A DNA stretch of 64,000 bases from Rhodothermales bacterium (GTDB lineage Bacteria > Bacteroidota > Rhodothermia > Rhodothermales > VXPQ01): NCBI GenBank assembly GCA_965223485.1, contig OZ244993.1:2089527-2153526 (forward strand), in the 5' to 3' direction. This document shows, piece by piece, positions 39,717 to 64,000 of this stretch. The notes under the pieces were generated by a model. It had not been told where the DNA came from. It ran no database searches and was given only the letters and a program-made list of their open reading frames with translations. Position numbers and translations under genes: made by a program. Numbering within the stretch: the stretch's first letter is position 1; the number at the start of each line of letters is the position of its first letter.

Positions 39717-42700
39717 ATGCAAATGAGACTGGCAAGGCTACTATTTACGCTTGCTCTGCTTCTTCCGGTCACCGCCTGGGCGCAGCAAGGCAAGATCGCT
39801 GGTCAGGTAACCGATGCGGGCACCGGGGAGTCGCTTCCCGGCGTGAACGTCGCGATCGTGGGAACGACGCAAGGCGCCGTTACCGACGCGGAGGGGTTCT
39901 ACCACATTCTGAATGTGCGCCCCGGCACGTACGGCGTACGCGCATCGTTCATCGGGTACACGGCGTCGGTACAGGAGGGAATCCACGTGAGTACGGACCT
40001 CACCTCCACGCTCAACTTTGAGCTACAGGAGGAAACGGTAGGTCTCGATGAGGTGGTCGTCACGGCCGAGCAGCCTATTGTGCAAGCTGACGTGTCAGCA
40101 AATGTGGCGAACCTGAGCGCCCAGGATTTTCAGGACTTGCCCGTAGCGGGCATTTCGGAAGTGCTGGACCTGCAGGCAGGCATTGAGCCTGGACTGATGA
40201 TACGTGGCGGCGGAATGAACCAAGTCGCTTTTATCGTCGACGGCCAGCAGATGCGTACGGGTCGCCACAACGACCCGCTGACGAGCATCAGCTACACGTC
40301 GCTTGAGGAGGTGCAGGTGCAGACAGGCGGGTTCAGTGCGGAGTACGGGAACGTTCGTTCCGGCATCGTGAACATCGCTACCAAGGAACCCTCCCGCACG
40401 GAGTACACGGTGGATGCGCTCATTCGCTTTGCGCCGGCCCAGGACAAGACCTTTGACGCCTATAGCCAGTTGCCATCGAGTTGCGACTATTCCTCCTCTT
40501 CTATTTCTATCGAGTGCAACACATGGTTTGCGCGCCCGGTGCTTGATCCGGCGGTTCGCCTGAACGGGGTGGAGAATTCCGATTGGGACGCCTATGACAT
40601 CCGGCAGTACAAGCCGTTTCCCGGTTGGGGAGGTATCATTGACCGTCTCCAGAGCGAGAATTTCGACGTGACCGAAGCGGATATGATCGAATACTGGCAC
40701 TACATGTGGCGCAAGAGCAACGAGATCACCATGCCGGACTACGACGCCGACATTACGATCGGTGGTCCGATTCCGGTCTACAGCCAGCGTTTGGGCGGTC
40801 TTCGCTTCCTTGCTTCTTATCGCGGTTCCCAGACTGCCTATTTGTATCCACAGGATCGTAAGGCATACACGGACAATACCTTTCAGGGGAAGCTGATCTC
40901 CAATGTGGCTCCGGGCATGAAGCTGACGTTCAGTGTGCTCGGTACGCGGCAGCGCGGCCAGCTTCAGAGCGAAAATACGCCGGGCACGGAGCTCTGGACG
41001 GGTGACATTCCGGCCTACCCCTGGTGGGGAGGCGGAGGAAAGCAGGTAAGGGATATCGATATTCGCGGGGACGAGTTGTTCACGGATGGGCAGTGGCCGA
41101 TCGGCGACATTGATCACCTTATGCTGGGCATGCAGTTCACGCATACGCTGAACCAGAACACCTTCTACGAGATAGGTCTTCAGCGGATGGAGTCGAACTA
41201 CCAGACGCATCTCCCGGTGTTGCGGGACGGTTCGTACGTATGTCCTGAAAGCGGCACGGGTCCCGACGGCGCACGCTGCCAGCCGCATGAGCTCGTCCGA
41301 CTTCCCTGGACGGACAATTTCGGCCGCATCAACGAAGGCTTTGGATACGAAAGCCTGATTGGCCAGGAAAACGGTATCGTGTGCTTCGGCGGCAAATCCG
41401 ACATTACGGGCGATGGGGCGGCTACGCCGTACTGCTCTGGTCAGGAGCCCATGGGCTTCGCCGGGATCGGCGGCAATATCCTGACGGACGAATCGACGGG
41501 TGGCCACTGGGTCAAGACGCGCGACACCTCGTCCGTGACGGTGTATACCGGCCGGTTTGACCTCACGAGTCAGTTCAATCGCTTCCTCCTGGTCCAGACG
41601 GGCGCCGAGCTGATCTACAGCGACTACAACATGGACTACGCCAGCATCAACATTGCGCTGGCCGGTCCGCAGTCGGGCGCCAGGTATCCGTGGGACGGCT
41701 CGCCCGTGCAGGGCGCCGCCTATGCGCAGGGCAAGCTCGAATTTCAGGGCATGATTGCAAACCTCGGTGTGCGTCTCGACTACTTCGACCCGAACACGGA
41801 GTGGTGGCAGTACGAACCGTATGAGGGTGTCTTCCGTTTCAACAGGGACAAGCTGGACGAAGAGCTGGAGACCGAATCCGTCGGTTCGCAGATCGGCGTC
41901 AGCCCCCGCGTTGGCATTTCCTTCCCGATTACGAGCAACAGCAAGCTGTACTTCAACTACGGCCACTTCCGCCAGATGATGGATGCCTACGATGTACTGG
42001 GTATCCGGCAGTCCAAGGCGGGCGGTATCGACAATATCGCGAATCCGGAGCATCCGCTTCCCAAGACGGTGGCGTACGAACTGGGCTTCGACCAGAATGT
42101 GCTGGATCAATTTCTGCTGCGTATTTCCGGGTACTACCGGGACAATAAGGAGCAGACGCGGACGGTCAATCTCCAGAGTCTTGGCGGCGTCGTGAATTAC
42201 AGTACGAAGATGCCGTGGGCCTACTCGGACGTGCGGGGCGCGGAGTTCAGCATCTCCAAGAACCGCGGCACGTGGATTCAGGGTTTTGCGAACTTCACCT
42301 ACCAGCAGTCGAAGAGCGGTAATTTCGGGTACTCGAACTTCTTTGAAAATTCGTTCCAGATGGTGAATTGGTTGCGCGACGCCGACGATTACCGGCAAAC
42401 CGCCCCGGTGGCCGAGCCGTTCGCTCGCGCGAATCTGCTTGTGCTCACGCCGCAAGGCTTCGGGCCCGAAGTGGCCGGCAAGAATCCGCTGGGGAATTTC
42501 CGCATCAGTATTCTGGGTGATTGGCGCAAGGGCATTGCGTTCACCTGGGCGGGTGGCGCGAGCATTCCTGAAGTGCGCAACAACGTCCGGTATCGCGACT
42601 ACTGGAATTTTGATCTGCGGTTCACGAAGCACCTCACCGCTGGGCCCACGCAGTTGCAGTTGTTTGCGGACATCGATAATGTCTTTAACCTGCGGCACCT

Positions 42701-43118
42701 GAACTGGGTCGGTGCATGGCTCAAACGACAGGGACGGGATTCGGAAGATTACCTGCGTTCTCTCCATTTGCCGTCGGATATCTTCGACCAGTTGCCTGAC
42801 GGCGCCACCAAGCCGTACCTGTGGGTGCCCGGCGACGATCGTCCGGGCGTATTCCGCGACTGGGATGTCGAATTCCAGCCGATCGAAGCTAAGGCCTCGT
42901 TGCCGGACGCTCCCGACGCGGACTTCGAGCGCGGTTGGGTTTGGGCCGAGGATAACGGTACGTACCACCGGTGGACCGGTAGCGGCTGGGAAAACGTTCC
43001 CTCCGGCGAGCTGGATCAGGTACTGAAGGATAAGGCATACATCGATATGCCGAACCACCGGTTCAATACCTTCCTGAACCCGCGCAGAGTCACGCTCGGT
43101 CTACGAGTAAGCTTTTAA
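39717..43118 (+). CDS. TonB-dependent receptor, module 1 (CarboxypepD_reg-like domain plus plug plus large barrel)
   Basis: A signal peptide (..LLPVTAWAQQ) is followed by GKIAGQVTDAGTGESLPGVNVAIVGTTQGAVTDAEGFYHILNVRPGTYGVRASFIGY. Then come the TonB-box-like LDEVVVTA and the plug (VQVQTGGFSAEYGNVRSGIVNI). The protein ends in the OMP signal GLRVSF. Confidence 0.9.
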   Translation: MQMRLARLLFTLALLLPVTAWAQQGKIAGQVTDAGTGESLPGVNVAIVGTTQGAVTDAEGFYHILNVRPGTYGVRASFIGYTASVQEGIHVSTDLTSTLNFELQEETVGLDEVVVTAEQPIVQADVSANVANLSAQDFQDLPVAGISEVLDLQAGIEPGLMIRGGGMNQVAFIVDGQQMRTGRHNDPLTSISYTSLEEVQVQTGGFSAEYGNVRSGIVNIATKEPSRTEYTVDALIRFAPAQDKTFDAYSQLPSSCDYSSSSISIECNTWFARPVLDPAVRLNGVENSDWDAYDIRQYKPFPGWGGIIDRLQSENFDVTEADMIEYWHYMWRKSNEITMPDYDADITIGGPIPVYSQRLGGLRFLASYRGSQTAYLYPQDRKAYTDNTFQGKLISNVAPGMKLTFSVLGTRQRGQLQSENTPGTELWTGDIPAYPWWGGGGKQVRDIDIRGDELFTDGQWPIGDIDHLMLGMQFTHTLNQNTFYEIGLQRMESNYQTHLPVLRDGSYVCPESGTGPDGARCQPHELVRLPWTDNFGRINEGFGYESLIGQENGIVCFGGKSDITGDGAATPYCSGQEPMGFAGIGGNILTDESTGGHWVKTRDTSSVTVYTGRFDLTSQFNRFLLVQTGAELIYSDYNMDYASINIALAGPQSGARYPWDGSPVQGAAYAQGKLEFQGMIANLGVRLDYFDPNTEWWQYEPYEGVFRFNRDKLDEELETESVGSQIGVSPRVGISFPITSNSKLYFNYGHFRQMMDAYDVLGIRQSKAGGIDNIANPEHPLPKTVAYELGFDQNVLDQFLLRISGYYRDNKEQTRTVNLQSLGGVVNYSTKMPWAYSDVRGAEFSISKNRGTWIQGFANFTYQQSKSGNFGYSNFFENSFQMVNWLRDADDYRQTAPVAEPFARANLLVLTPQGFGPEVAGKNPLGNFRISILGDWRKGIAFTWAGGASIPEVRNNVRYRDYWNFDLRFTKHLTAGPTQLQLFADIDNVFNLRHLNWVGAWLKRQGRDSEDYLRSLHLPSDIFDQLPDGATKPYLWVPGDDRPGVFRDWDVEFQPIEAKASLPDAPDADFERGWVWAEDNGTYHRWTGSGWENVPSGELDQVLKDKAYIDMPNHRFNTFLNPRRVTLGLRVSF

Positions 43119-43228
43119 GGAAAATCGATGCGCAGGGGGTCGGCGGCGGTTGCACCCGCCAGCCCCTTGGGCGTGTCCATCCGGAGATCAAAATCGCCGG
43201 CAGTTATCCTGCACATTCGAACAAGATC

Positions 43229-45574
43229 ATGATGAAAGCCAGTTACAAGTTTTTTACGGGCGCTGTCCTTGCGTTCACGATGGGGGTGCTGGGCGCAGGC
43301 ACGGCTGCTGCGCAGTTCACCATAACATGGCTCGACATTGGGGACTACCAGGACGGATATACCCAGATCGGCGTCAAGGACGAAACGTCGAACCTGATGG
43401 CCTATCCGGCCATTCACCGGAATTCGGCCCACGAGCGTTCCGGCGCCTTCTGGATCGGCGCCAAGAACTGGACGGATCCCAACGGGCAAGCCTATCCGTA
43501 TTACACGTCGCGCATCGGTCCCCGCGACCCCGGCGTCGATTTTGCCTATCCGCTCGAGGACAAACTGGTTGCCAAATGGGAGGACAGCGAGGTGACCGTG
43601 GACGGCGTGGCTTCCTTCGACCGCGTGGCGGTCGTGAGCGAGGTCGATCCGAGTCTGGCTGCCGACCGGATGCAGGAGTCCACATGGAACATGGATATAG
43701 GCGTAACCGTGCGCAAGCGGGCCTATGCGTACAGCAACGGTTTCCACGACGAATACCACATCGTCGAATATCTCTTTACGAATACGGGAAATACCGATGA
43801 CGATCCAGAGATAGAGCTCGATGGTCAAACGCTGGATGAGACCTACTTCTACTGGATTCATCGTTGGCGCGGTGGTCTTGATGGCGCCTGGGTCGGCGAC
43901 GGCGGTCAAGTGTGGGGCAAGTACAGCATGGTGGACGCCGTGGGCGATGGACATGCCGATTATCCCCTCGATATCACGGCATATTACCTCTGGAAGGGCT
44001 ACGAACCGGATTTCGATGCCAGCAAGTGGGATAATCTGGGTGCGCCGCTCATTGAAGCCGGCAGGCGATTTGCGCAAGGCGATACGGTAGGCCGGCTTTC
44101 GGGCGCCTACTTCGATGGGGAGATGCCGGTGTATGCTCCGAATTCCATGAGCGACGCATCCTTCGATCGTTCGATACAGCCGCATACGATCGGTTTCATG
44201 GATCAGGACGAGAAGTTGACGGCGGCGGGGGCTGCGCATAGCGAGTACTACGAGGACGGCATCCTGACGCGTGAGGACCATACGGCGGCGCCGGCGGGAT
44301 GCTCTTCGGATGTGACCCGCACGCGCATGTGCCCGATGTGGGCGGATCGTATCGAACCTGAGGGTAAATTCTGGGAGCCGACCAACAACCCGAGCCAGGG
44401 GCGCCAGGGCGGCCACGCCGCGACGGCGGCCTATGGTCCCTACGACATGGCATTCGGCGACGAAGTGCGTATCGTGTTTGTCCGTTCAGTAGGCGCCCTC
44501 GACTTCGATGCGGCGCTGGTCGTGGGCAGGGAATACTCGCTTACGGGTTGGGATCGGGACAGGGTCATTCGCTATGACGCCAACGGCGATGGGGTCATCA
44601 AGGACGATGTGCCGTACAGTTTCCACGATGTGTACGACCTTGGCCTCGAAGCCATGACGAAGAACCAGTGGGTGCTGACGGCGCGGGATTCGTTGTTCAA
44701 GAATTTCCTCAAGGGCAAGGCAGTCTATGAGGCGTCGAACGACTTCACGGCGTATCCGATAGTGCAGCCGCCGCTTCCGCCGAGGACGTTCTCGGTGGCT
44801 GGCAAGCCTGGCGAGGTCGAACTCTCCTGGGAGCCGCTGAGCGGCGGCCCCGCGCGCGTTGGCTGGGAAGTATATCGCACGAGCCGCGGTACCTTCTGGA
44901 GCCCGGCGTACGACTACGTGCGTGATCCGGGATCGGACGGTTTATTGGGGGCGCTGAGCAGCACGGACCAGAACGTGATGAATAAGCGGCTTCGCCGGAC
45001 GGAGGACGAATTGCCGTACACCTGTGTGCGCGGCGCTCGTCCCGATTGCAAGGCCCCCATGCTGGATGCGGGGGCTACGTCATTCAGCGATACGGACGTG
45101 GTGCGCGGTGAGGATTACTACTACTACCTCGTCGCCGTGGGCGAAAACCTTCCCAACGATCCCAATGGACTCAGGGGCGTTCCCGGCGGTGGCGTGCCGC
45201 TGCGCAGCGGCCGGTATTTCACGCAGACCTACCAGCCTGCCAACCTGAAGCGTCCACCGTTCGGGGCTACCGGGACGATCGAGGATGTGCGCGTGGTGCC
45301 GAATCCGGTGAACCTCGGTTCCGATCAGTCCATTCGTTTCACGAAAGAGGACGAAGTAGCTTTCTTCAACATTCCGGGGGACTGCACGATCAAGATTTAT
45401 TCGGAGATCGGCGAGCTCATTCAGACCATCGAACACGCCGACGGCAGCGGGGACGAGAAATGGAACCTTACCACGAGCGCCCGGCAGTTGCTCGTGAGCG
45501 GCATTTACATTGCCGTGGTTACCGACAATGAAACGAACGAGCAGGTATTCCGGAAATTCACGGTCATTCGGTAA
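43229..45574 (+). CDS. Uncharacterised 781-aa secreted protein with FN3-like segment and divergent T9SS-type C-terminal domain (module 1 partner)
   Basis: It has an SPI-type signal (..GAGTAAAQF) with no lipobox Cys. There is a Ca-loop-like DANGDGVIKDD and an FN3-like PPRTFSVAGKPGEVELSWEPL..WEVYRT. The last 95 aa are VRVVPNPVNLGSD..TIKIYSEIGELIQTIEH..GDEKWNL..VSGIYIAVVTD..FRKFTVIR. It is a paralogue of 59829..62054. Confidence 0.75.
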   Translation: MMKASYKFFTGAVLAFTMGVLGAGTAAAQFTITWLDIGDYQDGYTQIGVKDETSNLMAYPAIHRNSAHERSGAFWIGAKNWTDPNGQAYPYYTSRIGPRDPGVDFAYPLEDKLVAKWEDSEVTVDGVASFDRVAVVSEVDPSLAADRMQESTWNMDIGVTVRKRAYAYSNGFHDEYHIVEYLFTNTGNTDDDPEIELDGQTLDETYFYWIHRWRGGLDGAWVGDGGQVWGKYSMVDAVGDGHADYPLDITAYYLWKGYEPDFDASKWDNLGAPLIEAGRRFAQGDTVGRLSGAYFDGEMPVYAPNSMSDASFDRSIQPHTIGFMDQDEKLTAAGAAHSEYYEDGILTREDHTAAPAGCSSDVTRTRMCPMWADRIEPEGKFWEPTNNPSQGRQGGHAATAAYGPYDMAFGDEVRIVFVRSVGALDFDAALVVGREYSLTGWDRDRVIRYDANGDGVIKDDVPYSFHDVYDLGLEAMTKNQWVLTARDSLFKNFLKGKAVYEASNDFTAYPIVQPPLPPRTFSVAGKPGEVELSWEPLSGGPARVGWEVYRTSRGTFWSPAYDYVRDPGSDGLLGALSSTDQNVMNKRLRRTEDELPYTCVRGARPDCKAPMLDAGATSFSDTDVVRGEDYYYYLVAVGENLPNDPNGLRGVPGGGVPLRSGRYFTQTYQPANLKRPPFGATGTIEDVRVVPNPVNLGSDQSIRFTKEDEVAFFNIPGDCTIKIYSEIGELIQTIEHADGSGDEKWNLTTSARQLLVSGIYIAVVTDNETNEQVFRKFTVIR

Positions 45575-45660
45575 TCCGGGCACGGGGCGGATCGCTCGTC
45601 GGTTCGCCCCCGAGGCCTCGACACATGAGACCCCTTATCGACATTCAATCAGGCTTGATT

Positions 45661-46737
45661 ATGAAAAGGAGTATTGCTACCACGTGCTTTCTCGTAGCCA
45701 TCGGGTTACTGACGGCCCCGTCGACGTTTGCGCAGATTCCCGGTCCGGAGACCGAAGTGGAAACGGTCAAGCGGGGCCAGACCGGCTTCAAGTTTCTCTC
45801 GGCGTCCGTTGATGCGAGGGCAACCGCCATGGGCGGCGCCGTAACCTCGTCCACGACAGGTTCTTCGACGGCGATGTTCTACAACCCTGCGTCTATGGCT
45901 CGTATAGACGGCGATTTCAGCGCAGGCGTGGGCATCATGAACTACCTCGTGGACATCAAATACAATGTCGCGAGTGTGGCGTACCGCCCGGCCGGAGGAA
46001 ACTACGGGGTGGTCGGTCTCTCCCTGGTGAACGTGAATTACGGGGATTTCTTCGAAACGGTTCGTGCGGAAAACGAGCAGGGGTTCCTTGAGTTGGGCAC
46101 GTATAATCCGACTGCGCTTGCGATAGGCGTAGGGTATGCGCGGTCGTTCACGGATCGCTTTTCCATAGGTGCGCATGTCAAGTACGCCAAGCAGGACCTG
46201 GGTTCGTTCGCCAAAGCGCGCACGGACGATGGCACTGCCCTTGGCGATGGCACGTCCGCCACGTTCGAGGATTATGGGCTGAATACCATCGCGGTGGATT
46301 TCGGCGTGCTGTACGATACGGGCTTCGAGAGCCTCACGATCGCTATGAGCACCCGGAATTTCTCACGGGAGCTGGTGTACGAGCGCGAGCGTTTCGAACT
46401 TCCCCTGACATTCCAGATCGGCATGTCGATGGATGTGATGGACCTGACCAGTATGGATCCGAACATGCACTCCTTCATGGTTTCCGTGGATGCTCAGCGG
46501 CCGCGTGACTTTTCAGAGCATATCAAGATCGGTGGCGAGTACACGCTCATGAACATATTGTCCTTGCGCGGCGGTCTGGGACGCCCCTTTGTGGGCGAAG
46601 ACTCGGAAGAATCGTTCAGCGCCGGTGCGGGCTTGAAATATAGCGCTTCCGGGATTGGATTCGGCGTGGATTATGCCTACACGGACTTCGGTGATTTCGG
46701 CACTATCCAGCGCTTCGCCGTTAACATTTCCTTCTGA
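45661..46737 (+). CDS. PorV/PorQ-family-like (FadL-fold) outer-membrane barrel, module 1
   Basis: A signal peptide (..LLTAPSTFAQ) precedes the N-terminal block GFKFLSASVDARATAMGGAVTS..SSTAMFYNPASMA. Alternating beta-strand sequence follows and ends ..IQRFAVNISF. The start is taken at MKRSIA, inside track ORF 45625. Confidence 0.6.
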   Translation: MKRSIATTCFLVAIGLLTAPSTFAQIPGPETEVETVKRGQTGFKFLSASVDARATAMGGAVTSSTTGSSTAMFYNPASMARIDGDFSAGVGIMNYLVDIKYNVASVAYRPAGGNYGVVGLSLVNVNYGDFFETVRAENEQGFLELGTYNPTALAIGVGYARSFTDRFSIGAHVKYAKQDLGSFAKARTDDGTALGDGTSATFEDYGLNTIAVDFGVLYDTGFESLTIAMSTRNFSRELVYERERFELPLTFQIGMSMDVMDLTSMDPNMHSFMVSVDAQRPRDFSEHIKIGGEYTLMNILSLRGGLGRPFVGEDSEESFSAGAGLKYSASGIGFGVDYAYTDFGDFGTIQRFAVNISF

Positions 46738-46756
46738 TAAGGTCTCCCGTTTCTGC

Positions 46757-48460
46757 TTGACAGGTTGGCCGGGCGCTGTTCTTGTCTGTTTCGCTGCGGG
46801 TTGGTTGAGCGCTTGTTCGCTCTCTACCTCGCGGTTGGCGGACGAGGAGGGTGTCCGGCTTCCTGTTTTTACGAATGTTGCCGCGGAATCCGGCCTTGGC
46901 GCCTTCAGGCATGTCAATGGCGCTGCCGGAGACAAGTGGTATCCCGAGCAGATGGGGTCCGGAGGGGGATTTTTCGATTACGACGGCGATGGCTGGAGCG
47001 ACATTCTGCTCCTTGGCGGCGGCGATTGGGATCCCGAAACGCCGGTCCAGGCAATCTTTCTGTACCGGAACAATGGCGACGGCTCCTTCACTGAGGTAAC
47101 GGAAGCGGCAGGTCTGGCCGGTGTGGATGGGTATACGATAGGAATGGTCGCTGCCGACTACGACAACGACGGGGACGCGGACCTCTATATTACCTGTCTC
47201 GAGGAGAATTTTTTCTTCCGAAACGACGAGGGGCGATTCGTCGAGGCAACGCGCGAGGCGGGTCTGGAAGGGAACGACATCTGGAGCAGTTCCGCTATTT
47301 TCTTCGATGCGGACCGGGACGGGGACGCCGATCTGTATGTTGCGAACTATGTGGCATGGACGCCTGAAACGGACATTTTCTGCCCGCTTCGGGGAACGGT
47401 CAAGTTGTATTGCCACCCTGCCGTGTATACCGGGGTGCAAAGCCGGTATTATGTGAACGAAGGGAATGGCGCGTTTGTGGATCGAACCGAAGCCGCCGGT
47501 TTCATGCCGACGCTTGGCAAATCGCTGGGCGTTGCCGAACTGGATTTTAACTTCGACGGCTGGCCCGATCTTGCCGTGGCGAACGACGGAGAGGGTGATT
47601 TGCTGTTTCGGAACAATGCGGACGGCACGTTCACCGATATCGGGGCGCCGAGCGGGTTTGCGTTCAGCGAGCACGGGGAAGCCCGCGCCGGCATGGGCAT
47701 TGACGCGGGGATCACGGACAGTACGGGGCGTTATTCCCTGTACGTGGGCAATTTTTCAGGTGAAATGATCGGGGCGTACCGCCATGTCGAGGGCGAATCG
47801 TTCATCGACCGGGCGGCGCTGTCGCGCATCGGATTTCCAAGTTTGCTGTCGCTTACGTTCGGGCTGTTTCTCATGGATGTGGACATGGATACGGACCTGG
47901 ATCTGTTTGCTGCGAATGGGCACGTACACCCGGACAGAACCGGCGAGAACGACCGTATTCGCTACCGGCAGCCCGCACAGCTTTTCCTGAATCGGGGCGA
48001 TGGGGTGTTCGATGAATTTACTCCGGGGGAGGGGGTATGGACGCATCTGCTTGTGGGGCGCGGGGCCGCCTATGCGGATTACGACCAGGACGGGGATCAG
48101 GATATTCTTCTCACAGAGAACGGGGCCCCGGCGCATCTATGGCGCAACGATACGACCCCCGGACATTATCTGCGCGTGCATGTCGAGGGTCGTACAAGCA
48201 ATCGCGACGGTCTCGGAACCCGCATTACGGCCAGACTGGGCGACTTGACCATGGAACGGCGCATTCGGACAGGATCCAGTTATCTTGCGCAATCGGAGCC
48301 GGTGGCTGCGTTCGGGCTCGGTAGCCGGGAGGAAGTCGATTCGCTGATCGTGTACTGGCCCGGCGGTCTTGTCGAGCGGTTTGCCAGCGTGGCGGGTGAT
48401 CGGGATGTGCTCCTTGTCGAAGGGACGGGCGATCTGACACCTATCCGGCCGCATCCATAA
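46757..48460 (+). CDS. CRTAC1-family FG-GAP/VCBS repeat lipoprotein with ASPIC/UnbV-like C-terminal domain (copy 1)
   Basis: The lipobox is AAGWLSAC. FG-GAP Ca loops include DYDGDGWSDILL, AADYDNDGDADLY, FFDADRDGDADLYVANY, LDFNFDGWPDLAVAND and YADYDQDGDQDILL. The C-terminal WRND..GHYLRVHVEGRTSNRDGLGTRI..RRIRTGSSYLAQSE is UnbV-like. A TTG start at 46757 is assumed; the track ORF starts at 46655. Confidence 0.8.
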   Translation: MTGWPGAVLVCFAAGWLSACSLSTSRLADEEGVRLPVFTNVAAESGLGAFRHVNGAAGDKWYPEQMGSGGGFFDYDGDGWSDILLLGGGDWDPETPVQAIFLYRNNGDGSFTEVTEAAGLAGVDGYTIGMVAADYDNDGDADLYITCLEENFFFRNDEGRFVEATREAGLEGNDIWSSSAIFFDADRDGDADLYVANYVAWTPETDIFCPLRGTVKLYCHPAVYTGVQSRYYVNEGNGAFVDRTEAAGFMPTLGKSLGVAELDFNFDGWPDLAVANDGEGDLLFRNNADGTFTDIGAPSGFAFSEHGEARAGMGIDAGITDSTGRYSLYVGNFSGEMIGAYRHVEGESFIDRAALSRIGFPSLLSLTFGLFLMDVDMDTDLDLFAANGHVHPDRTGENDRIRYRQPAQLFLNRGDGVFDEFTPGEGVWTHLLVGRGAAYADYDQDGDQDILLTENGAPAHLWRNDTTPGHYLRVHVEGRTSNRDGLGTRITARLGDLTMERRIRTGSSYLAQSEPVAAFGLGSREEVDSLIVYWPGGLVERFASVAGDRDVLLVEGTGDLTPIRPHP

Positions 48461-48558
48461 GTTCCTTTACGCGCGAAAGTAAAGTGCTGAGCGAAGTGGT
48501 TTTGATCAGAGTATCCATAAGTATATCCAGGCGCCCGGTTTGCGGGGTGCGCCGTGCG

Positions 48559-50304
48559 GTGCATTTCGCCATACGCTGCATCGGTATCGCTGTAACCGCA
48601 TCTTGCACGGGACTTGTTGCCGGGTGTGCGGGAGGGGAAGATGCATCTCCCGGCTCTCCGTCTGCTGCGCTTGTTTTCACGGAGGTCACCGAGGAGGCGG
48701 GCCTTGGGGAATACCGGCACCGGAATGGGGGTCTCGGCCAGAAATGGATGCCCGAGGTAGTGGGGCCCGGCGGGGCATTTCTTGACTACGATGGCGACGG
48801 CTGGCAGGATATTCTGCTGGTGGGCGGTGGACGGTGGGCGCGTGTTTCCGACGAGCCGGTCGAAGCGCTGCGGCTTTATCGTAATCTCGGGGATGGGACG
48901 TTTGATGATGTCTCCGTCGCAGCAGGCCTCAGTGGCATAGAGGCATACGGATTCGGCGTGGCCGCTGCCGATTACGACAACGACGGGGACACGGATTTTT
49001 TTCTGACGACCCTCCACGAGAACCTGCTTTTTCGCAACGACGCCGGGCGGTTTGAGGAAGTCGGGGAAGAGGCGGGGCTCGCGGACGAGGCCTACTGGAG
49101 CACATCCGCCGTATTCTTCGACGCCGACCGGGACGGCTGGGTCGATTTATTCGTGGGCAACTATGTGTTCTGGACGCCCGAGACGGATATTTCCTGTTTT
49201 CACGAGGGGGAGAAGGCCTATTGCACGCCGCAGAATTATGCGGGCGTCGCCAGCGCCTTCTATCGCAACAAGGGCGATGGCGCCTTTGTCGACGCGACGC
49301 AGGAGGCCGGTTTTTCGGGCGCTATCGACCCCGTGCTGGACAAGACGCTCGGCGTGGCCGAACTGGACATAACCGGAGACGGACATTCCGATCTGTATGT
49401 AGCCAACGATACGGAGCGGAACTTGCTGTTCGTGAATCGCGGGGACGGCACGTTTGCCGAGGCCGCTGTGCGCAGTGGCGTGGCCTACGACCAGCATGGG
49501 CAATCGCGGGCAGGCATGGGGGTGGATGCGGGCGTGGTGGACAGCACCGGACAAACGACCATCTTCGTGGGTAATTTTACCCAGGAAACAGTGAGCGTTT
49601 TCCGGCATGCCTCGGGTGGTTATTTCACGGATCGGGCTACGATATCCCGCGTCGGATTTCCGACGATGGGCACCCTGACATTCGGCCTGTTTCTTTTCGA
49701 CGCGGACCTGGATGGAGACCTCGACCTTTTTCTCGCCAACGGCCATGTACTGGAGCATATCGCCGAGATTCTCGAGGGGGCGGCTTTTGCGGAGCCGGCG
49801 CAGCTTTTTCTCAATCGGGGCGACGGGATATTCAACGAAGCGCTTCCAACGACCGGCGTGCTTGCGCAGCCGATGGTGGCCCGTGGCGCTGCCTATGCCG
49901 ATTACGACCGGGACGGGGACCTCGACGTATTGCTGCTGGAAAACGCCGGGCCGGTGCATCTCTGGCGCAACGATCTGAACGGGAAAGGGTGGTTGCATAT
50001 CCGGCTGGAAGGGCGCGCCAGCAACGGCAGTGCGCTTGGCGCACGGATCGAAGCGATAGTCGGCGATTTGCGCATGGAGCGCCGCATCCGGTCGGGTTCG
50101 AGTTTTTTGTCACAGTCCGCATTGCCTGCGGTATTCGGGTTGGGAGCACGTCGGCAAGTAGATAGTCTAATAGCATATTGGCCGAGCGGTCTCGTCGAGC
50201 GTTTTGCTGGAGTGGCAGCTGGGCAAGAGGTGGTGCTTGTCGAGGGGTCCGGCGTGTTGCGCCCGGCAGAACCCGTCGCAGGGCGTTCCAGGGGGATCCG
50301 GTAA
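48559..50304 (+). CDS. CRTAC1-family FG-GAP/VCBS repeat lipoprotein with ASPIC/UnbV-like domain (copy 2)
   Basis: It has the same architecture as 46757..48460, with lipobox GLVAGC. A GTG start at 48559 is assumed; the track ORF starts at 48484. Confidence 0.8.
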   Translation: MHFAIRCIGIAVTASCTGLVAGCAGGEDASPGSPSAALVFTEVTEEAGLGEYRHRNGGLGQKWMPEVVGPGGAFLDYDGDGWQDILLVGGGRWARVSDEPVEALRLYRNLGDGTFDDVSVAAGLSGIEAYGFGVAAADYDNDGDTDFFLTTLHENLLFRNDAGRFEEVGEEAGLADEAYWSTSAVFFDADRDGWVDLFVGNYVFWTPETDISCFHEGEKAYCTPQNYAGVASAFYRNKGDGAFVDATQEAGFSGAIDPVLDKTLGVAELDITGDGHSDLYVANDTERNLLFVNRGDGTFAEAAVRSGVAYDQHGQSRAGMGVDAGVVDSTGQTTIFVGNFTQETVSVFRHASGGYFTDRATISRVGFPTMGTLTFGLFLFDADLDGDLDLFLANGHVLEHIAEILEGAAFAEPAQLFLNRGDGIFNEALPTTGVLAQPMVARGAAYADYDRDGDLDVLLLENAGPVHLWRNDLNGKGWLHIRLEGRASNGSALGARIEAIVGDLRMERRIRSGSSFLSQSALPAVFGLGARRQVDSLIAYWPSGLVERFAGVAAGQEVVLVEGSGVLRPAEPVAGRSRGIR

Positions 50305-50337: not shown

Positions 50338-51573
50338 ATGATACGACGGTTTTGCATGGTGGCGGTCGCCTTCCTGCTTGCAGGGTGTGCGCAGGAAGGT
50401 GTGGAAGAGCCGCTTACCCGGACGGACGAACTCCGTGCATCGCTGCCCCTGAACGTGCAACGGTTTATGCTTCAGGCCGAGACGGCGTGGCGTCAGGGGA
50501 ATTACCTGCATGCGCTGGCGCTCACCGACAGCGTTGCGAAGTATGCCCCGGAACTGGCGGATACCTACTTCCTGCGCGGAAGAATCTACACGGACCTGAA
50601 CCAGCTCGACATTGCGAATGCAGCGTACGCCACTGCCCTCGCCGCAGACGAGGAGTACCGCGGGGCGCACATGAATATCGGCATCAATCATTTTCGCAGG
50701 GGGCGGCTCCGGGATGCGGTCGGCGCCTTCCGGCGGGAAGAGGCGATCATGCCGAATACGCATCTGTACCTCGAAATGGGCCGCACGTATGCAAAACTTG
50801 GCATGGCCGACAGTGCGCAGTGGTCGTACGAGCAGGCCATTACGATCGACAGCACGAACACGACGGCCTACATGTGGCTGGGGCAACTCCACGAGGAGAT
50901 GGGGGATTTCGAGACGGCCATCGCTCTGTCGAAACGCGCCGCTGCACTCAGACCGGAGAGCGCGGACTACCGCTATGTGATCGGGTCACAGTTGCTCCGC
51001 ATGGGCGAGGTCGAGGAGGCTGTCGCGCAGCTCCGCACCGTGGTCGAGGAACGCCCGTGGCATCATGGTGCGCAGTACAATCTCGGACAGGCATTGATGC
51101 GTCTTGGCGAGGAGGCCGAGGCAGAGACGCATCTTGCGCTGGCCGAAGAGGCTCAGGGAATCCAGCAGGAGGTCAACGAGGCGCACGAAGCAGTGAACCG
51201 GGACCCCAGCGATGTGCAGAATTGGCTGCACTTGAGCGAGGTACACCGCAAGGCGGGGATGTACGATCGGGCGCTGGATGCCTACAAACGGGCCATTGCC
51301 ATCATTCCGAACGATCTTCGAATGCACGTTAACCTGGCGTCGCTGATGCTGGAAAGCGGCGATGCCGACGGCGCTATTGCGCAATACCGGATGGTCGTCG
51401 ATCGCGATCCGTCCTTGGCGGATGCCTGGCTGAACCTGGGCGTGGCCTATGGCAATGCCGAACGGTATGACGAGGCGCGCCAGGCCTGGGAAATGACGAT
51501 CCGGCTCGATCCGGGCAACCGCACCGCCCGAAACAACCTGAATATGCTTGCCCGCATGGCGAGCGAAGGATAA
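50338..51573 (+). CDS. TPR-repeat lipoprotein
   Basis: The lipobox is FLLAGC. It carries about 9 TPR-like units (e.g. AETAWRQGNYLHALALTDSV, YFLRGRIYTDLNQLDIANAAYATALAADE, AWLNLGVAYGNAERYDEARQAWEMTIRLDPGN). Confidence 0.8.
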   Translation: MIRRFCMVAVAFLLAGCAQEGVEEPLTRTDELRASLPLNVQRFMLQAETAWRQGNYLHALALTDSVAKYAPELADTYFLRGRIYTDLNQLDIANAAYATALAADEEYRGAHMNIGINHFRRGRLRDAVGAFRREEAIMPNTHLYLEMGRTYAKLGMADSAQWSYEQAITIDSTNTTAYMWLGQLHEEMGDFETAIALSKRAAALRPESADYRYVIGSQLLRMGEVEEAVAQLRTVVEERPWHHGAQYNLGQALMRLGEEAEAETHLALAEEAQGIQQEVNEAHEAVNRDPSDVQNWLHLSEVHRKAGMYDRALDAYKRAIAIIPNDLRMHVNLASLMLESGDADGAIAQYRMVVDRDPSLADAWLNLGVAYGNAERYDEARQAWEMTIRLDPGNRTARNNLNMLARMASEG

Positions 51574-51595: not shown

Positions 51596-52918
51596 ATGAT
51601 CCAACCATTTTACGTACCCATGCGCTTTGCTGCGATGGCGACTTGTGTCGCTGTACTCATTCTTTCGTGTGGCTTTCAACACGCTCAAGGCCAAACCACC
51701 ATTCCGGCTGGTGATGCGCCCGAAGCGGGCAGATGGACCGGGTTCATGCAAAACCCCGGCGGTACGCCCTTCGGCGTGACGATCGTCCTGCCTGGCGACG
51801 GGGCATCGACACCGGCGCGCTTGTATGTCGAGCACCTTACCCGGGAGGAATTCCTTGTGGAAGAGGTGCGCTTGCTGGAAGGTTTTCTGTCGTTTGCCTG
51901 GTGGCCTTCTTTTCGGCTGGACTGCTGGCTTGAGCGCGAACCCGATGGGGTGTTCGTGGGAGTTTGCTCCGACGAGGAGGCGAGTATGGGCCCCGTGACG
52001 ATCGCGCCGCCCGGCAGTGTCACGTCTGCGGAGCGCCTTTCCCGGGAGCGGGTGCAGCAGCGCCTGGATCGGGTTGACCGGTTGGTCAAGTACCGCGAGT
52101 TGGACATGCTCGACGGTCCTCGCGGACGGAAAGTGGATGCCGGGGGCTACAACCTGTATACGCTGGACGAAGGCGAAGGTATGCCTGTCGTCTTCGTGTC
52201 CGATCTGGGCGAGGACCTGCGCGTATGGGATTATGTGCACCACGATGTACAGGCGTTCGCCCGGGCTATATCGTATTCGCGTTCGGGGCTGGGATATTCG
52301 GATGCGGCGTCGCCGTCCCGCCAGCCCGAAAGGAGGCCCTCCTACATTGCGGAAGAACTCCGTACCCTCCTGCAGAATCTGGAGGCTGAGCCGCCGTACA
52401 TACTGGTGGCGCACGGGCTCGGAACCGTGTTTGCCCGGGCGTTTACCGGGCAATATCCCGGTGCGGTGGCGGGGTTGGTGCTGGTAGAGCCGGTGCATGA
52501 AGGGGAGGGACAGCGGCTTGGCGCCATGGATGAGGATTCCATGGATCGATATATTGCCGGAAAGAGCATGTTGTACGGTCTCGCTTCGGATGCTGAACGC
52601 GGCGAATTCGAGATATACAGGGACATGATGGAAACAGGCGCTTTTTCAGGCGCCGGGGCGCTGCCGGATATACCCGTGGTTGTGCTTACGTCCCTGCAAG
52701 CCCCGGAAACGCCGCGCTGGGTGGGCGAAACAGATGCCGGGATTCGGGCGAAGGCCGAATTGCGGGAAGAATTGCTGGATGGGCTCACGTGGAGCCGGCA
52801 TGTGCAGACCCGGCGCAGCGGAACGTGGTTTCACCGGGAAGCGCCGGATTTCGTGGTCGAGGCTATTCGGGATGTCATGGATGCTGCTTCGACGGGCGCA
52901 TCGAACGGGACACGCTGA
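51596..52918 (+). CDS. Alpha/beta-hydrolase-fold protein with a non-canonical nucleophile elbow
   Basis: The C-terminal ~270 aa follow the alpha/beta-hydrolase pattern (VVFVSDLGED.., YILVAHGLGTVFARAFTGQYPGAVAGLVLVEP, ..WFHREAPDFVVEAI). The N-terminal ~150 aa domain is unassigned. The signal/lipobox is LILSCG. Confidence 0.6.
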   Translation: MIQPFYVPMRFAAMATCVAVLILSCGFQHAQGQTTIPAGDAPEAGRWTGFMQNPGGTPFGVTIVLPGDGASTPARLYVEHLTREEFLVEEVRLLEGFLSFAWWPSFRLDCWLEREPDGVFVGVCSDEEASMGPVTIAPPGSVTSAERLSRERVQQRLDRVDRLVKYRELDMLDGPRGRKVDAGGYNLYTLDEGEGMPVVFVSDLGEDLRVWDYVHHDVQAFARAISYSRSGLGYSDAASPSRQPERRPSYIAEELRTLLQNLEAEPPYILVAHGLGTVFARAFTGQYPGAVAGLVLVEPVHEGEGQRLGAMDEDSMDRYIAGKSMLYGLASDAERGEFEIYRDMMETGAFSGAGALPDIPVVVLTSLQAPETPRWVGETDAGIRAKAELREELLDGLTWSRHVQTRRSGTWFHREAPDFVVEAIRDVMDAASTGASNGTR

Positions 52919-56542: not shown

Positions 56543-59500
56543 ATGAGATTCGCAAAGCTACTGTTTGCGCTTGCTCTCTTTCTTCCGGCTTCTGCCTGGG
56601 CTCAAACGGGTAAAATCGCCGGTCAGATCACGGAAGCTTCAACCGGTGAGTCGTTGCCCGGCGTAAACGTGTCCATTACGGGCACGACGCAGGGCGCCAT
56701 TACCGATGCGGACGGCTATTACTTCGTCGTGAACGTGCGTCCCGGATCGTACGATCTCAGGGCTTCGTTCATCGGATTCGCCCCCGAGGTGCACGAGGGC
56801 GTCCGAGTCAATATCGGTCTGACGACCGATATTGACTTTGTCCTGCAGGAAGAAGCGGTCGGCCTCGAGGAGGTGGTCGTTACGGATGTGCGGCCTGTCG
56901 TGCAACGCGACGTTTCGGCCAGCGTGGCGAACATTACGGCGGAAGAAATCGAGAACCTTCCGGTGACCGACATTGAAAGGGTTATCGGGTTGCAGGCTGG
57001 TTTCGAGCGGGGTCTTACCGTGCGCGGCTTCGGCGGCGACCAGATCCAGTTCATGGTGGACGGCCTGTCGATGGCCAGCGGGCGCGACAACACGCCGTAT
57101 ACGGGCGTGAGTTATACCTCTGTACAGGAAGTTCAGGTGCAGACGGGCGGTTTCAATGCGGAATACGGCAATGTGCGTTCGGGGCTTGTTAATGTCGTTA
57201 CGAAAGAGCCGGAGCGGAACCAGTACTTCGTAGACGCCATTGCGCGCTACAGCCCAACGTCGCAGAAAAACTTCCCGGGCGTCGATGTCGAAGGCAATGA
57301 CGTTGACATGTTGAGCTCCGACAGGAGTTTCTACATCCGCCCGCTCGTGGATCCGGCTGTGGCGTTTGCGGGAACAGGAGCGTGGCCGTCCTGGATGCAG
57401 TCGGAATACTACACGTTTGCGGGATGGGACGCGATAGCGGAGGGCTATAATGGTCGAGAGGGAACCAGTTTTACGGGTCAGCAGATGCAGTCGGTTTTTT
57501 TCGATCACTACCTGCGGAACGACATATCGGTATCAGCGCCCGACTACGAAATCGACGCCACCATCGGGGGGCCGGTGCCGGGGCTGAGTAACCTGCTCGG
57601 AGATCTGCGGTTCACGGCCTCGTTCCGGCAGACACAGACGGCCTATTCGTTCGGTGGGCATGCGCGGGACGCGTTCCAGGAACGCACCGGCCAGGCCAAA
57701 CTGATCTCGAACTTCTCCCCCGGCATGAAACTCACGCTCTCCGGGCTCTACGGACAGCAAATGGGGCTCAACCGTAATGAATCAGGGTGGCCCGACCTCA
57801 CGACGGGCGACAGGCTGTACTACCCCTGGCAAAGCGGGGGTCTCCACCAATCGATGTACGGTTGGCAGGACAACGAAGAAATCGATCAATTCGGGGGGTA
57901 CTTCTCCCCCATGCTGTACAACCTGATGGATGTCGACCGCCTGATGCTCGGCGCACAGTTCACGCACGCGCTGAACGCGAACACCTTCTACGACGTACAG
58001 CTCCAGAACATCACCACCGACTATTTTACGCGCACGATCGAACCTCGGAACCTTGAAGCGACCTACTCCTATTTGAACGGGGGGATCATGCTCAACGAAG
58101 AGCCTTACGGCTTCAGCATCAAGGACCAGTTCGATAAAGTGCTGGGCATCCGCACGTCGGGCCACTGGGGCAGCGGGTACGATAGTTCGAGCGTAAACCG
58201 CTTCACGGGCCGGTTCGACGTCACCAGCCAGCGCAACCGTTTCCTGTTGGCCAAGGCGGGCGTCGAGTACATCTATTCGAACTACGATACCGATTTCGGT
58301 GAGAACGATCCGGAGCACCCGCACCATACGAATCCCAAGCGGCTCTGGAACCGCAAGCCGCAGCAAGCCGCGGCGTATGCCCAGTCGAAACTCGAATTCC
58401 GGGGCATGGTCGCCAATGTGGGCGTGCGGCTGGATTATTTCCATGCGGGCGGGGACTGGTACACGTACGACACGTACGAGCGCACGTTTTCAGCGGCCAT
58501 CGGGCGGGCCCGGATCGACGAACTGCTTGAGCAGGAACCCACGCAGCGTCAGCTTGCCCTGAGTCCCCGCATCGGCGTCTCCTTCCCGGTCACGGACGAC
58601 AGCAAGTTGTATTTCAACTACGGCCATTTCCGGAACGCACTCAACCCCATGAGGCTCTTCAACATCGAGGAAGGATCCGCCGGCGCGCTCGTGAACATCG
58701 GCAACCCCGACCACCCGATGCCGAGAACGGTGGCCTACGAACTGGGTTTCGACCAGAGCCTGTTCAACCAGTACCTGCTGCGCTTGGCCGGGTACTACCG
58801 GGATCTGGGTAACCAGCCGCGCAGTGTCCGGTACATCAGCCTCGACGACCTGGTCAGCTATCGCACCGCCCTGCCCTGGAACTACGGCGATGTGCGCGGC
58901 TTCGAGGTTACGCTCTCGAGGAACCGGGGCCAGTGGATCCGCGGGTTCCTCAATTACACGTACATGGTGCGAAAGACGGGCAATTTCGGGTTCAGCCAGT
59001 TTGACGAGAACCGCACGGCGCAACAGAACTTCGTCACGACCACGCAGGAGCACTACACGAGCAAGCCGATCCCCGAGCCCTTTGCGCGGTTCAACCTTGA
59101 GTTTCTCTTTCCGCAAGAGATCGGCCCTCAAGTCGGAGGCAGTTATCCGCTCGGCGACTGGCGTATCAACTTCCTCGGCGAATGGCGCCAGGGAGTGTCC
59201 ATGACCTGGGACGGTCTGAATCTGAGCGGTGCTACGGGCAGCGGCCCCCGCGAACTGCAAGGGAATGTTCGCTGGAAAGACTACTACACGCTCGACATGC
59301 GTTTCAGCAAGAGCTTCAACACCAGCCTCGGCTCCGCCCAGTTCTTTGTGGACATGACGAACGTGCTCAACATCCGCCACCTGTACTTTGCGGGCGGCGC
59401 ACTCTTCGGCGCCGGCGACCAGGACCTGTCGCGGTATATGGGGTCGCTGCACCTTCCGGAAGATACTCTTCCACGTCCCGATGATACCCCTGCCACCGGG

Positions 59501-59782
59501 CTCTACGGAGACGACCGGCCGGGTGATTTCCGGAAGCCGGGCGTGGCCTATGTGCCCATCGTTGAAGGGCAGTTGCCGGAGGCCGGCGAAGGTGGGCCGC
59601 TCTATTATGTGGCGGAAGAGAACAAGTATTACGAGTGGAGCGGCGGTTCCTTTGCGGCGGCGGACCAGGGCAAAGTGGACCAGGTGTTGGAGGACAAGGC
59701 ATACATCAACATGCCGAACCGGATGTCCAGCCAGTTCCTGAACCCGCGCAACGTGTTCTTCGGCTTGCGGATATCCTTCTGA
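56543..59782 (+). CDS. TonB-dependent receptor, module 2 (paralogue of 39717..43118)
   Basis: It is collinear with module 1: GKIAGQITEASTGESLPGVNVSITGTTQGAITDADGYYFVVNVRPGSYDLRASFIGF, LEEVVVTD, VQVQTGGFNAEYGNVRSGLVNV, ..FFGLRISF. ATG 56543 lies inside track ORF 56396. Confidence 0.9.
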   Translation: MRFAKLLFALALFLPASAWAQTGKIAGQITEASTGESLPGVNVSITGTTQGAITDADGYYFVVNVRPGSYDLRASFIGFAPEVHEGVRVNIGLTTDIDFVLQEEAVGLEEVVVTDVRPVVQRDVSASVANITAEEIENLPVTDIERVIGLQAGFERGLTVRGFGGDQIQFMVDGLSMASGRDNTPYTGVSYTSVQEVQVQTGGFNAEYGNVRSGLVNVVTKEPERNQYFVDAIARYSPTSQKNFPGVDVEGNDVDMLSSDRSFYIRPLVDPAVAFAGTGAWPSWMQSEYYTFAGWDAIAEGYNGREGTSFTGQQMQSVFFDHYLRNDISVSAPDYEIDATIGGPVPGLSNLLGDLRFTASFRQTQTAYSFGGHARDAFQERTGQAKLISNFSPGMKLTLSGLYGQQMGLNRNESGWPDLTTGDRLYYPWQSGGLHQSMYGWQDNEEIDQFGGYFSPMLYNLMDVDRLMLGAQFTHALNANTFYDVQLQNITTDYFTRTIEPRNLEATYSYLNGGIMLNEEPYGFSIKDQFDKVLGIRTSGHWGSGYDSSSVNRFTGRFDVTSQRNRFLLAKAGVEYIYSNYDTDFGENDPEHPHHTNPKRLWNRKPQQAAAYAQSKLEFRGMVANVGVRLDYFHAGGDWYTYDTYERTFSAAIGRARIDELLEQEPTQRQLALSPRIGVSFPVTDDSKLYFNYGHFRNALNPMRLFNIEEGSAGALVNIGNPDHPMPRTVAYELGFDQSLFNQYLLRLAGYYRDLGNQPRSVRYISLDDLVSYRTALPWNYGDVRGFEVTLSRNRGQWIRGFLNYTYMVRKTGNFGFSQFDENRTAQQNFVTTTQEHYTSKPIPEPFARFNLEFLFPQEIGPQVGGSYPLGDWRINFLGEWRQGVSMTWDGLNLSGATGSGPRELQGNVRWKDYYTLDMRFSKSFNTSLGSAQFFVDMTNVLNIRHLYFAGGALFGAGDQDLSRYMGSLHLPEDTLPRPDDTPATGLYGDDRPGDFRKPGVAYVPIVEGQLPEAGEGGPLYYVAEENKYYEWSGGSFAAADQGKVDQVLEDKAYINMPNRMSSQFLNPRNVFFGLRISF

Positions 59783-62054: not shown

Positions 62055-62137
62055 ATATGCGGTCACAGCGGCTTCTACCCGTTGCTTGCCAAACCGAAGC
62101 CTCAAATCGAGGAGATTCAATGACACATTGCAACCAC

Positions 62138-63217: not shown

Positions 63218-64000
63218 ATGACCTTCCCGGCGGTGCGTCTGCGTGAGGACATCTGGGTAGCGATTTTCATCGCGACAGGGTGGGGGATTATCGGCGGATG
63301 CGGAGGGGATGAGCAGGGAAATCCGCCCGAGGGGCTTCTGCCCATTGCATTTCATGATGTAGCTCCGGTCGCCGGTCTGGGCGATTTCCGGCACGAAAAC
63401 GGAAGCGAAGATCGTTTCTGGTTTCCCGAACAGATGGGCGCCGGGGGCGGGTTTGTGGATTACGACGGAGACGGCTGGGAAGACATTGCATTGGTGGGTG
63501 GGGGAAGTTTGTCACCGACGGGGCCGGCGGGCGTACGCGCCTTGCGCCTTTTTCACAACAACAGGGACGGGACGTTTACGGACGTTACCCGTGAAGCGGG
63601 GCTGGACGATGCCCGCGCTTGGGGAACCGGGGTAACCGCAGCCGATTACGACAACGACGGCGATCAGGATATTTTTCTTGCGGCCTTCGGAGAGAATCTG
63701 CTTTTCCGCAATGATCCCGGGCCGTCAGGGGCACGTTTTTTTACCGAGACTGGACGTGCCGCAGGCGTGGCAGGTCCCCCTGGATGGAGCAGTTCGCCGC
63801 TCTTTTTTGACGCCGACCGGGACGGACATCTCGATCTCTACGTGCCCGGTTATGCCGTGTGGTCGCTTTCCAGTGACATGGAATGTTTTCGGGCGGACGG
63901 ACGACCGGATTATTGCCGCCCCGCCATGTACCCGGGCGCCCGGAGTTATTTCTACCATAACAACGGAGACGGTACGTTCACCGAGCGTACGCACGCAAGC
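63218..64000 (+). CDS. CRTAC1-family FG-GAP/VCBS lipoprotein (copy 3), 3'-truncated by the window end
   Basis: It is not in the ORF track because there is no stop inside the window. It reads MTFPAVRLREDIWVAIFIATGWGIIGGC (lipobox), then FVDYDGDGWEDIAL, AADYDNDGDQDIFL and FFDADRDGHLDLYVPGY, and is open to 64000. Confidence 0.75.
   Translation, partial: MTFPAVRLREDIWVAIFIATGWGIIGGCGGDEQGNPPEGLLPIAFHDVAPVAGLGDFRHENGSEDRFWFPEQMGAGGGFVDYDGDGWEDIALVGGGSLSPTGPAGVRALRLFHNNRDGTFTDVTREAGLDDARAWGTGVTAADYDNDGDQDIFLAAFGENLLFRNDPGPSGARFFTETGRAAGVAGPPGWSSSPLFFDADRDGHLDLYVPGYAVWSLSSDMECFRADGRPDYCRPAMYPGARSYFYHNNGDGTFTERTHAS

Follow-up and report, generated by a model that had tools for sequence, protein, structure and literature searches.

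A conserved trio of a TonB-dependent receptor, a putative type IX-secreted surface protein and a PorV/PorQ-family barrel in Rhodothermales

The T-X-V trio and its operon

In a 64,000-nucleotide stretch of the genome of a Rhodothermales bacterium (GCA_965223485.1, contig OZ244993.1, positions 2,089,527 to 2,153,526; referred to here as the window), three co-directional genes on the forward strand encode a TonB-dependent receptor (T), a secreted protein of no recognised family (X) and an outer-membrane barrel of the PorV/PorQ family (V). They had been singled out in an earlier reading of the letters alone (the sequence-only reading), which proposed that X is exported by the T9SS (type IX secretion system), is held at the surface by V as its private anchor, and serves T as a binding partner in place of a SusD-type lipoprotein. 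The layout described there agrees exactly with the open reading frames (ORFs; Table 1, where these first copies are called T1, X1 and V1), with 110 nt separating T from X and 86 nt separating X from V; the longest possible ORF for V1 opens at 45625. The accompanying claim that no SusD/RagB-like ORF is present in any frame also held, since neither the genes between 33.1 and 63.2 kb, the rest of the operon included, nor the 10 long shadow ORFs searched in the remaining frames gave a match to the SusD/RagB family. A hidden SusD in another frame was ruled out by this shadow-ORF search, and the genes leave no free coding stretch that could accommodate a SusD.

While the trio itself proved real, the sequence-only reading had overlooked how far the module extends. 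V1 is followed by two FG-GAP/UnbV_ASPIC lipoproteins (F1 and F2), a TPR-repeat lipoprotein and an alpha/beta-hydrolase; the lipoboxes of the first three are clear, that of the hydrolase only possible. Further downstream lies a second, diverged trio (T2, X2 and V2), the members of which are 44%, 34% and 51% identical to T1, X1 and V1, respectively, and in the alignment of X2 with X1 the C-terminal domain is visibly more similar than the other regions. The module has therefore undergone paralogous expansion within one genome, as SusCD pairs do. A sigma-70 promoter scan of the region from 39 to 57 kb returned fewer promoter-like sites than were found in shuffled sequence, and intrinsic-terminator-like sites occurred there at chance level.

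The signal peptides of T, X and V (39717-39790, 43229-43315 and 45661-45735) all end in A-Q, such that the mature N-terminus would be Gln. These residues (Q23 in T, Q29 in X and Q25 in V) are invariant or nearly so within each family, and they fit the reported habit of secreted Bacteroidota proteins of carrying an N-terminal pyroglutamate.

Family assignments of T, X and V

T1 passes the Pfam cut-offs for CarbopepD_reg_2 (79 bits), CarboxypepD_reg (65 bits) and Plug (37.3 bits, cut-off 23.9), confirming its earlier placement as a 1133-residue TonB-dependent receptor of the CarboxypepD_reg/plug class, and it shows the generic features of such receptors in having both a plug and a terminal Phe. 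Against the SusC model TIGR04056, T1 scores 70.9 bits over model positions 2-127 only and T2 scores 71.7 bits; both lie far under the cut-off of 368 and, judged by these scores, T is not a member of the SusC family. Searches of solved structures, made with T alone and with a family profile, gave matches confined to the N-terminal extension and plug (the profile aligns with the SusC homologue 8aa4 over residues 5-166 only), and the class of the barrel could therefore not be assigned. No Pfam barrel model matched T1 and the NCBIfam barrel matches were weak and partial, such that the presence of a C-terminal beta-barrel is inferred from the length of the protein and its family.

X1 carries a signal peptidase I-type signal ending in ...GTAAAQ/F and lacks a lipobox Cys, both as read directly from the sequence beforehand. 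A Pfam search matched it to no family. The AlphaFold2 (AF2) model (pLDDT 88.8) comprises a large beta-rich N-terminal domain, an FN3-like domain and a C-terminal domain (CTD). Foldseek searches with the N-terminal domain (N-domain) returned only weak similarities (query TM-score 0.30-0.35) to beta-sandwich domains at the N-termini of GH94, GH15 and GH116 enzymes and no confident structural or functional relative. Matches of such low TM-score were not accepted as a sign of enzyme function, and neither Pfam nor Foldseek found a catalytic domain or fold in X. Because the sandwiches that the N-domain weakly resembles are themselves non-catalytic, X may be read, with low certainty, as a binder rather than an enzyme. 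The FN3 region contains a low-confidence insert at approximately aa 555-600 and a conserved linker, TQTYxPxNLKRPP; Foldseek matches to full-length X are dominated by tandem FN3 proteins, and searches of the PDB with the sequence and the profile found FN3 domains, a weak match to the PorZ tail and nothing else. Homologues of X number in the hundreds, all of them annotated as hypothetical and predominantly from Rhodothermales, and a family profile search gathered 533 clusters (50% identity) at E<=1e-30. By the measure of these searches, X is a member of no described family.

The last ~95 residues of X1 had been taken for a T9SS sorting domain, a proposal that falls short for X1 by itself, which scores 18.2 bits against TIGR04183 (cut-off 23), but that stands at the level of the family. 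All 17 of the X-family tails match TIGR04183 at E<=0.01 (best 2.3e-7), and all 17 match the C-terminus of PorZ more strongly still (best 2e-11), whereas, of 12 canonical tails taken as a control, all matched TIGR04183 and only 2 matched PorZ. The X1 tail itself matches the C-terminus of the PorZ model with 28.7 bits (E 4.6e-7), its AF2 model has seven strands between aa 688 and 779, and the motifs PNP, SGIY and KFTVIR are readable in the X1 sequence, as is a Sec signal peptide. When a profile of 17 diverse X tails was compared with canonical type-A CTDs using hhalign, the two aligned with 96.5% probability (E 7e-10), and no type-B CTD family came up for X in the hidden Markov model searches. 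Some members of the X family bear a canonical PF18962 tail in place of the special tail, and long multidomain relatives of the X N-domain end in a canonical Por_Secre_tail in eight of eight cases. The window holds no core T9SS genes; it encodes at least five other proteins with type-A CTDs, including a GH53 enzyme, an amylase and a CBM20 protein, so that a T9SS is presumably present and in use. Taking together the PorZ-tail match, the seven-strand sandwich, the profile-profile alignment, the members with PF18962 tails, the Por_Secre_tail relatives and the CTD proteins of the window, export of X by the T9SS is well supported and likely.

The N-terminal block FKFLSASVDARATAMGGAVTSSTTGSSTAMFYNPASMA (FKFL...AMFYNPASMA), on which the assignment of V to the PorV/PorQ-like barrels had been based, is present in V1, and the assignment is borne out by the family model NF033709 (PorV_fam, cut-off 90), which V1 and V2 match with 178.9 and 177.4 bits, respectively, and which matches 27 of 27 V-family members. 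Of the specific models, PorQ is the best match for V1, which scores 93 bits against the PorQ equivalog NF033711 (cut-off 220) and 62 bits against the PorV equivalog NF033710 (cut-off 250); the values for V2 are 65 and 58 bits. Neither protein passes either cut-off and V therefore represents a separate subfamily as opposed to PorQ or PorV itself. Weak matches to the PorP family and to BamG were each seen in 2 of 27 members. PorV-family proteins have the FadL fold (PMC12578637) and V2 gives a sub-threshold match to the Toluene_X/FadL model PF03349 (24.8 bits, cut-off 29.7), and on these grounds one might suppose that V is an ordinary FadL/OmpP1 channel for a hydrophobic substrate, the tail of X being merely Ig-like and nothing here having a T9SS role. 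However, V1 does not match PF03349 at all, and the best solved relative of the V family profile is PorV from F. johnsoniae (6h3i_F, E 5.6e-11), with FadL-type structures at E 0.04-0.4. A generic FadL transporter is ruled out by this relationship together with the PorV_fam scores and, considering also that the X tails match T9SS CTD models without exception and are exchanged for canonical CTDs in some family members, this explanation is largely refuted and very improbable.

Conservation, co-variation and a tentative model

A scan of species-representative genomes yielded 452 relatives, and 78 loci were fetched from other genomes. In approximately 66 of these 78 the order T-X-V recurs, even where identity is as low as 36-38%, and it is kept across Rhodothermales and Marinimicrobia, so that the arrangement is not due to chance and the failure of synteny that would have counted against the original proposal was not seen. 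In the fetched loci the trio is usually followed by one to three FG-GAP/UnbV genes, a TPR gene and a hydrolase, with an F1-type FG-GAP gene conserved behind V in most of them, and at least five loci bearing an X homologue occur in one metagenome-assembled genome. The module is also present in the cultured organism Rhodocaloribacter litoris, in which X is split by a DDE transposase/insertion sequence element into pieces of 184 and 615 aa in one assembly (CP076718.1, locus L079, 6473-9863) and is intact, with 735 aa, in a second (GCA_026003535.1, locus L080, 7484-9691), thereby providing a natural knock-out. The neighbours of other trios include SSF symporters, a GntP permease, a GH3 enzyme and Gfo/Idh/MocA oxidoreductases. 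These sugar-linked genes, as well as UxaE, an aldolase and dehydrogenases in the window, point to sugars and suggest a glycan or sugar derivative as the substrate. A literature search turned up no description of the trio, in keeping with what the sequence-only reading had said of its novelty. Further X paralogues, at five loci among those listed, have ordinary tails, stand in tandem or carry long N-terminal extensions.

PorQ and PorV hold PorZ and PorU at the cell surface, where the latter two keep their CTDs, that of PorZ being bound to PorQ (PMC10202324, PMC10947112). Several properties of X and V are consistent with an equivalent arrangement. The mean pairwise identity of the X tail (0.73) exceeds those of T (0.61), V (0.60) and the N-domain of X (0.56), which makes the tail the most conserved part of X, an outcome not expected of a signal that is discarded. 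In partial Mantel tests on 56 complete trios, repeated on 27 non-redundant trios, divergence of the CTD tracked that of V with the N-domain and T controlled (partial r=0.56 and 0.58, respectively; p<=0.002) and did not track that of T (-0.07 and -0.17; not significant), with the reservation that such tests are liberal for related sequences and that matrix correlations between linked genes are only suggestive. Moreover, V is adjacent to 71 of the special-tail homologues of X and absent beside five, compared with none and six for those with canonical tails (Fisher p=1.3e-6), and neither V nor T is ever adjacent to the ordinary-tail relatives. The private anchor that had been proposed thus gains indirect support from the PorZ-like conserved tail, its co-variation with V and the lack of V beside ordinary tails, while for the five special-tail orphans V would have to act in trans or be dispensable.

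The same observations bear on a different role for V, namely that of a private PorV-type secretion shuttle for X (compare SprF with SprB) which is required for drawing X out of the translocon but provides no permanent anchor, X being cleaved by PorU and then linked to lipopolysaccharide or released. PorV, which shares the PorV/PorQ family with V, is itself a shuttle (PMC5562754), and type-B cargo is known to have cognate PorP/SprF-like partners (PMC9143113). Those partners have been found to anchor their cargo as well, in a non-covalent manner (PMC9143113), however, and the tail of X is both like the retained PorZ tail as opposed to tails that are cleaved and too well conserved for a part that is thrown away. 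We consider the shuttle improbable and, on the strength of the sequence comparisons, X is probably retained on V.

A link between X and T is suggested by the strict order of the genes and by the remaining co-variation, in which divergence of the N-domain tracks that of T with a partial r of 0.52-0.59 (p<=0.002) and the FN3 domain does so with 0.39-0.43, V and the tail being controlled in both cases. On a plasmid of Hymenobacter volaticus, a TonB-dependent receptor gene is followed by SusD and then by an FG-GAP/VCBS gene and, by comparison with this order, X and V occupy the position that SusD holds there. We tentatively propose a conserved outer-membrane nutrient-uptake module in which T would act as the TonB-powered importer. 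Sec would take X across the inner membrane and the T9SS would take it across the outer one, and the CTD of X would remain uncut and bound to V as that of PorZ does to PorQ. Anchored in this way, X would expose its N-terminal and FN3 domains at the surface, where together with T they would capture the substrate or hand it over, and the downstream FG-GAP/UnbV and TPR lipoproteins and hydrolase would be part of the same module. The components of this proposal differ in strength. The reading of the module as a whole, for which a lid-type T-X complex is not required, we regard as evenly balanced. That X cooperates directly with T or forms a complex with it is possible but somewhat short of that, and a lid-type complex of X with T, plausible as it is, stands if anything slightly lower. 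In the boldest reading, T, X and V would make up one machine, with X as a non-lipidated lid or capture subunit that the T9SS brings to the surface and that docks, by its uncleaved PorZ-like CTD, on a private PorQ-like barrel beside the transporter; we would put the probability of this reading at roughly 0.35.

The orphans and ordinary-tail relatives of X lend themselves to a reading in which X, delivered by the T9SS and anchored by V, works at the surface as a binder of glycans or as an enzyme that has escaped recognition, comparable to a surface glycan-binding protein or SusG, acts upstream of T and forms no lid complex, the receptor being partnered by the FG-GAP/UnbV and TPR lipoproteins or by nothing. 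Ordinary-tail relatives of the N-domain occur away from receptors, fused to beta-helix/pectate-lyase-like, BNR, FG-GAP_2 or LRR domains; orphan copies of X that keep the special tail adjoin a sulfatase, a glycoside 3-dehydrogenase or a deacetylase; and there are three lipoproteins within the module. Such a protein would not by itself account for the strict T-X-V order and tight spacing conserved over two phyla, and no catalytic domain or fold was found that would mark X as an enzyme. The tracking of T by the N-domain and FN3 domain also speaks for a closer relationship, although shared substrate specificity could give the same signal. We judge this alternative to be on the unlikely side.

Several points weigh against the proposed mechanism. 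On plasmid pACIX901 of Granulicella tundricola (Acidobacteriota), a TonB-dependent receptor is found with TPR and CRTAC1 genes but without SusD, X or V, and F1, F2 and the TPR lipoprotein could be the real surface partners of the receptor. Since the ordinary-tail relatives of X occur without a receptor, the N-domain is not intrinsically a receptor lid. The five special-tail homologues with no adjacent V or T (at four loci, one of which has two) imply either that V acts in trans or that the tail needs no V. To these may be added the sub-threshold TIGR04183 score of the X1 tail, the lack of a confident relative of the X1 N-domain and the liberal nature of the Mantel tests. The association of receptor and CRTAC1 genes spans the phyla Acidobacteriota and Bacteroidota. 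The receptors that stand beside FG-GAP/CRTAC1 genes in Granulicella and Hymenobacter share only their N-terminus with T and are not orthologues, for which reason a common ancestral module cannot be claimed.

Comparison with known systems places the trio between several of them. The closest counterparts for X and V are PorZ-PorQ and PorU-PorV of Porphyromonas gingivalis, where type-A-like CTD proteins are likewise paired with PorV/PorQ-family barrels and retained CTDs hold the protein at the surface (PMC10202324, PMC10947112); the tail of X best matches the PorZ CTD and V best matches PorQ. X is, however, unrelated to PorZ outside the tail, V falls below the PorQ and PorV equivalog cut-offs, and X and V are encoded together, in several copies per genome and within a TonB-receptor operon, instead of serving the secretion machinery. 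Type-B CTD cargo (SprB with SprF; PG1035 with PorP) resembles X in adjoining its own small barrel, by which it is anchored non-covalently (PMC9143113), but the tail of X is type-A-like and V is a PorV/PorQ-family protein, not a PorP/SprF one. A further parallel is the pair BamG-BamH from the BAM complex of Bacteroidota, where the external loops of a FadL-fold barrel keep hold of an extracellular protein (PMC12578637); the family and context are different and there is neither a CTD nor a link to the T9SS.

On the side of the receptor, the trio recalls SusC-SusD (RagA-RagB) and the receptors with lipoprotein lids such as BtuG and DUF4249 (bioRxiv 10.1101/2023.03.17.533168) in its large CarboxypepD_reg receptor with an accessory gene immediately downstream. 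With SusCD it further shares the expansion into paralogues, the sugar-related neighbours and the FG-GAP gene behind, as in the Hymenobacter SusCD locus. It differs in that X is no lipoprotein and has no homology to SusD or to the listed lid families, in that the T9SS would carry X to the surface and a barrel would keep it there, and in that T fails the SusC model past its N-terminus.

The accessory lids described so far for TonB-dependent transporters of the Fibrobacterota-Chlorobiota-Bacteroidota group are, to our knowledge, all lipoproteins, and an importer with a surface protein held by a barrel instead of a lipid would be of novel construction. Likewise, PorU and PorZ, which are parts of the secretion system itself, are the only cases known to us in which a retained T9SS tail docks on a PorV/PorQ barrel. 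If the proposal is correct, lasting surface machinery for the import of nutrients is among the things that the T9SS can build, and the docking of a CTD on a barrel is a modular and reusable principle, with the trio as a second, non-secretory use of PorZ-PorQ docking. Rhodothermales and the abundant marine Marinimicrobia would then take up polymers by machinery other than SusCD, with T-X-V as the SusCD counterpart. Three large families of "hypothetical" proteins would gain a testable role, with R. litoris as a cultured model.

Neighbourhood of the two trios

Table 1. Coordinates of the two trios, the domains of X1 and other features of the window.
Feature	Position	Strand	Remarks
T1: TonB-dependent receptor, 1133 aa	39717..43118	+	signal peptide ...AWAQ/Q; CarboxypepD_reg-like N-terminal extension, plug, divergent barrel, C-terminal Phe
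X1: secreted protein, unknown family, 781 aa	43229..45574	+	signal peptidase I-type signal aa 1-28; without lipobox
X1 N-terminal domain, aa 29-512, large, beta-rich	43313..44764	+	AF2 pLDDT 94; no catalytic domain recognised
X1 FN3-like domain, aa 513-680	44765..45268	+	PDB profile matches to FN3; AF2 structure; conserved columns
X1 C-terminal domain, aa 686-781, divergent PorZ-like type-A T9SS CTD	45284..45571	+	7-strand sandwich; PNP, SGIY, KFTVIR motifs
V1: PorV/PorQ-family outer-membrane barrel, 358 aa	45661..46737	+	signal peptide ...TFAQ/I
F1: FG-GAP/UnbV_ASPIC (CRTAC1-like) lipoprotein	46673..48460	+	lipobox LSAC; start uncertain: 46673, 46691 or 46757
F2: second FG-GAP/UnbV_ASPIC lipoprotein	48484..50304	+	lipobox VAGC
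TPR-repeat lipoprotein	50338..51573	+	lipobox LAGC
Alpha/beta-hydrolase, last conserved module gene	51596..52918	+	possible lipobox ILSC
T2: TonB-dependent receptor, paralogue of T1 (44% identical)	56543..59782	+	
X2: paralogue of X1 (34% identical overall), 741 aa	59829..62054	+	tail matches PorZ C-terminus
V2: PorV/PorQ-family barrel (51% identical to V1)	62057..63157	+	begins 2 nt past X2 stop codon
F3: FG-GAP lipoprotein downstream of second trio	63218..64000	+	lipobox IGGC; runs off window end
CBM20 protein with canonical type-A tail	2398-4533		
GH53 galactanase with canonical type-A tail	4560-6284		
Second GH53, without tail	6425-7741		
Alpha-amylase with canonical type-A tail	7686-10964		
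Protein of unknown function with canonical type-A tail	11244-13718	+	
Protein of unknown function with canonical type-A tail	16370-18913	-	

Between the two trio modules (52964-56298) the gene of a 792-aa TonB-dependent receptor shares 4 nt with that of a 319-aa lipoprotein (LSAC/EEDV), which gives a sub-threshold match to DUF4249 (22.9 bits, cut-off 28.5). DUF4249 has been proposed as one of the families of lipoprotein lids in Bacteroides (bioRxiv 10.1101/2023.03.17.533168) and, from its genes, this is a classical pair of receptor and lipoprotein lid. A receptor also follows the hydrolase in ten of the other loci, and a DUF4249-like gene flanks the module of R. litoris.

Upstream of T1 (33127-39371) are genes for the breakdown of sugar acids and aldehydes, which encode the tagaturonate epimerase UxaE, a DeoC/LacD aldolase and two dehydrogenases, one for aldehydes and one a Zn-dependent alcohol dehydrogenase. 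Conservation of the alcohol dehydrogenase upstream of T is limited to the closest relatives (eight loci). A phage-type integrase on the reverse strand (19202-20134) adjoins a stretch of low G+C content (0.496 at 22001-24000 as against ~0.6 elsewhere), and the two together (19202-24000) may mark the edge of a mobile element.

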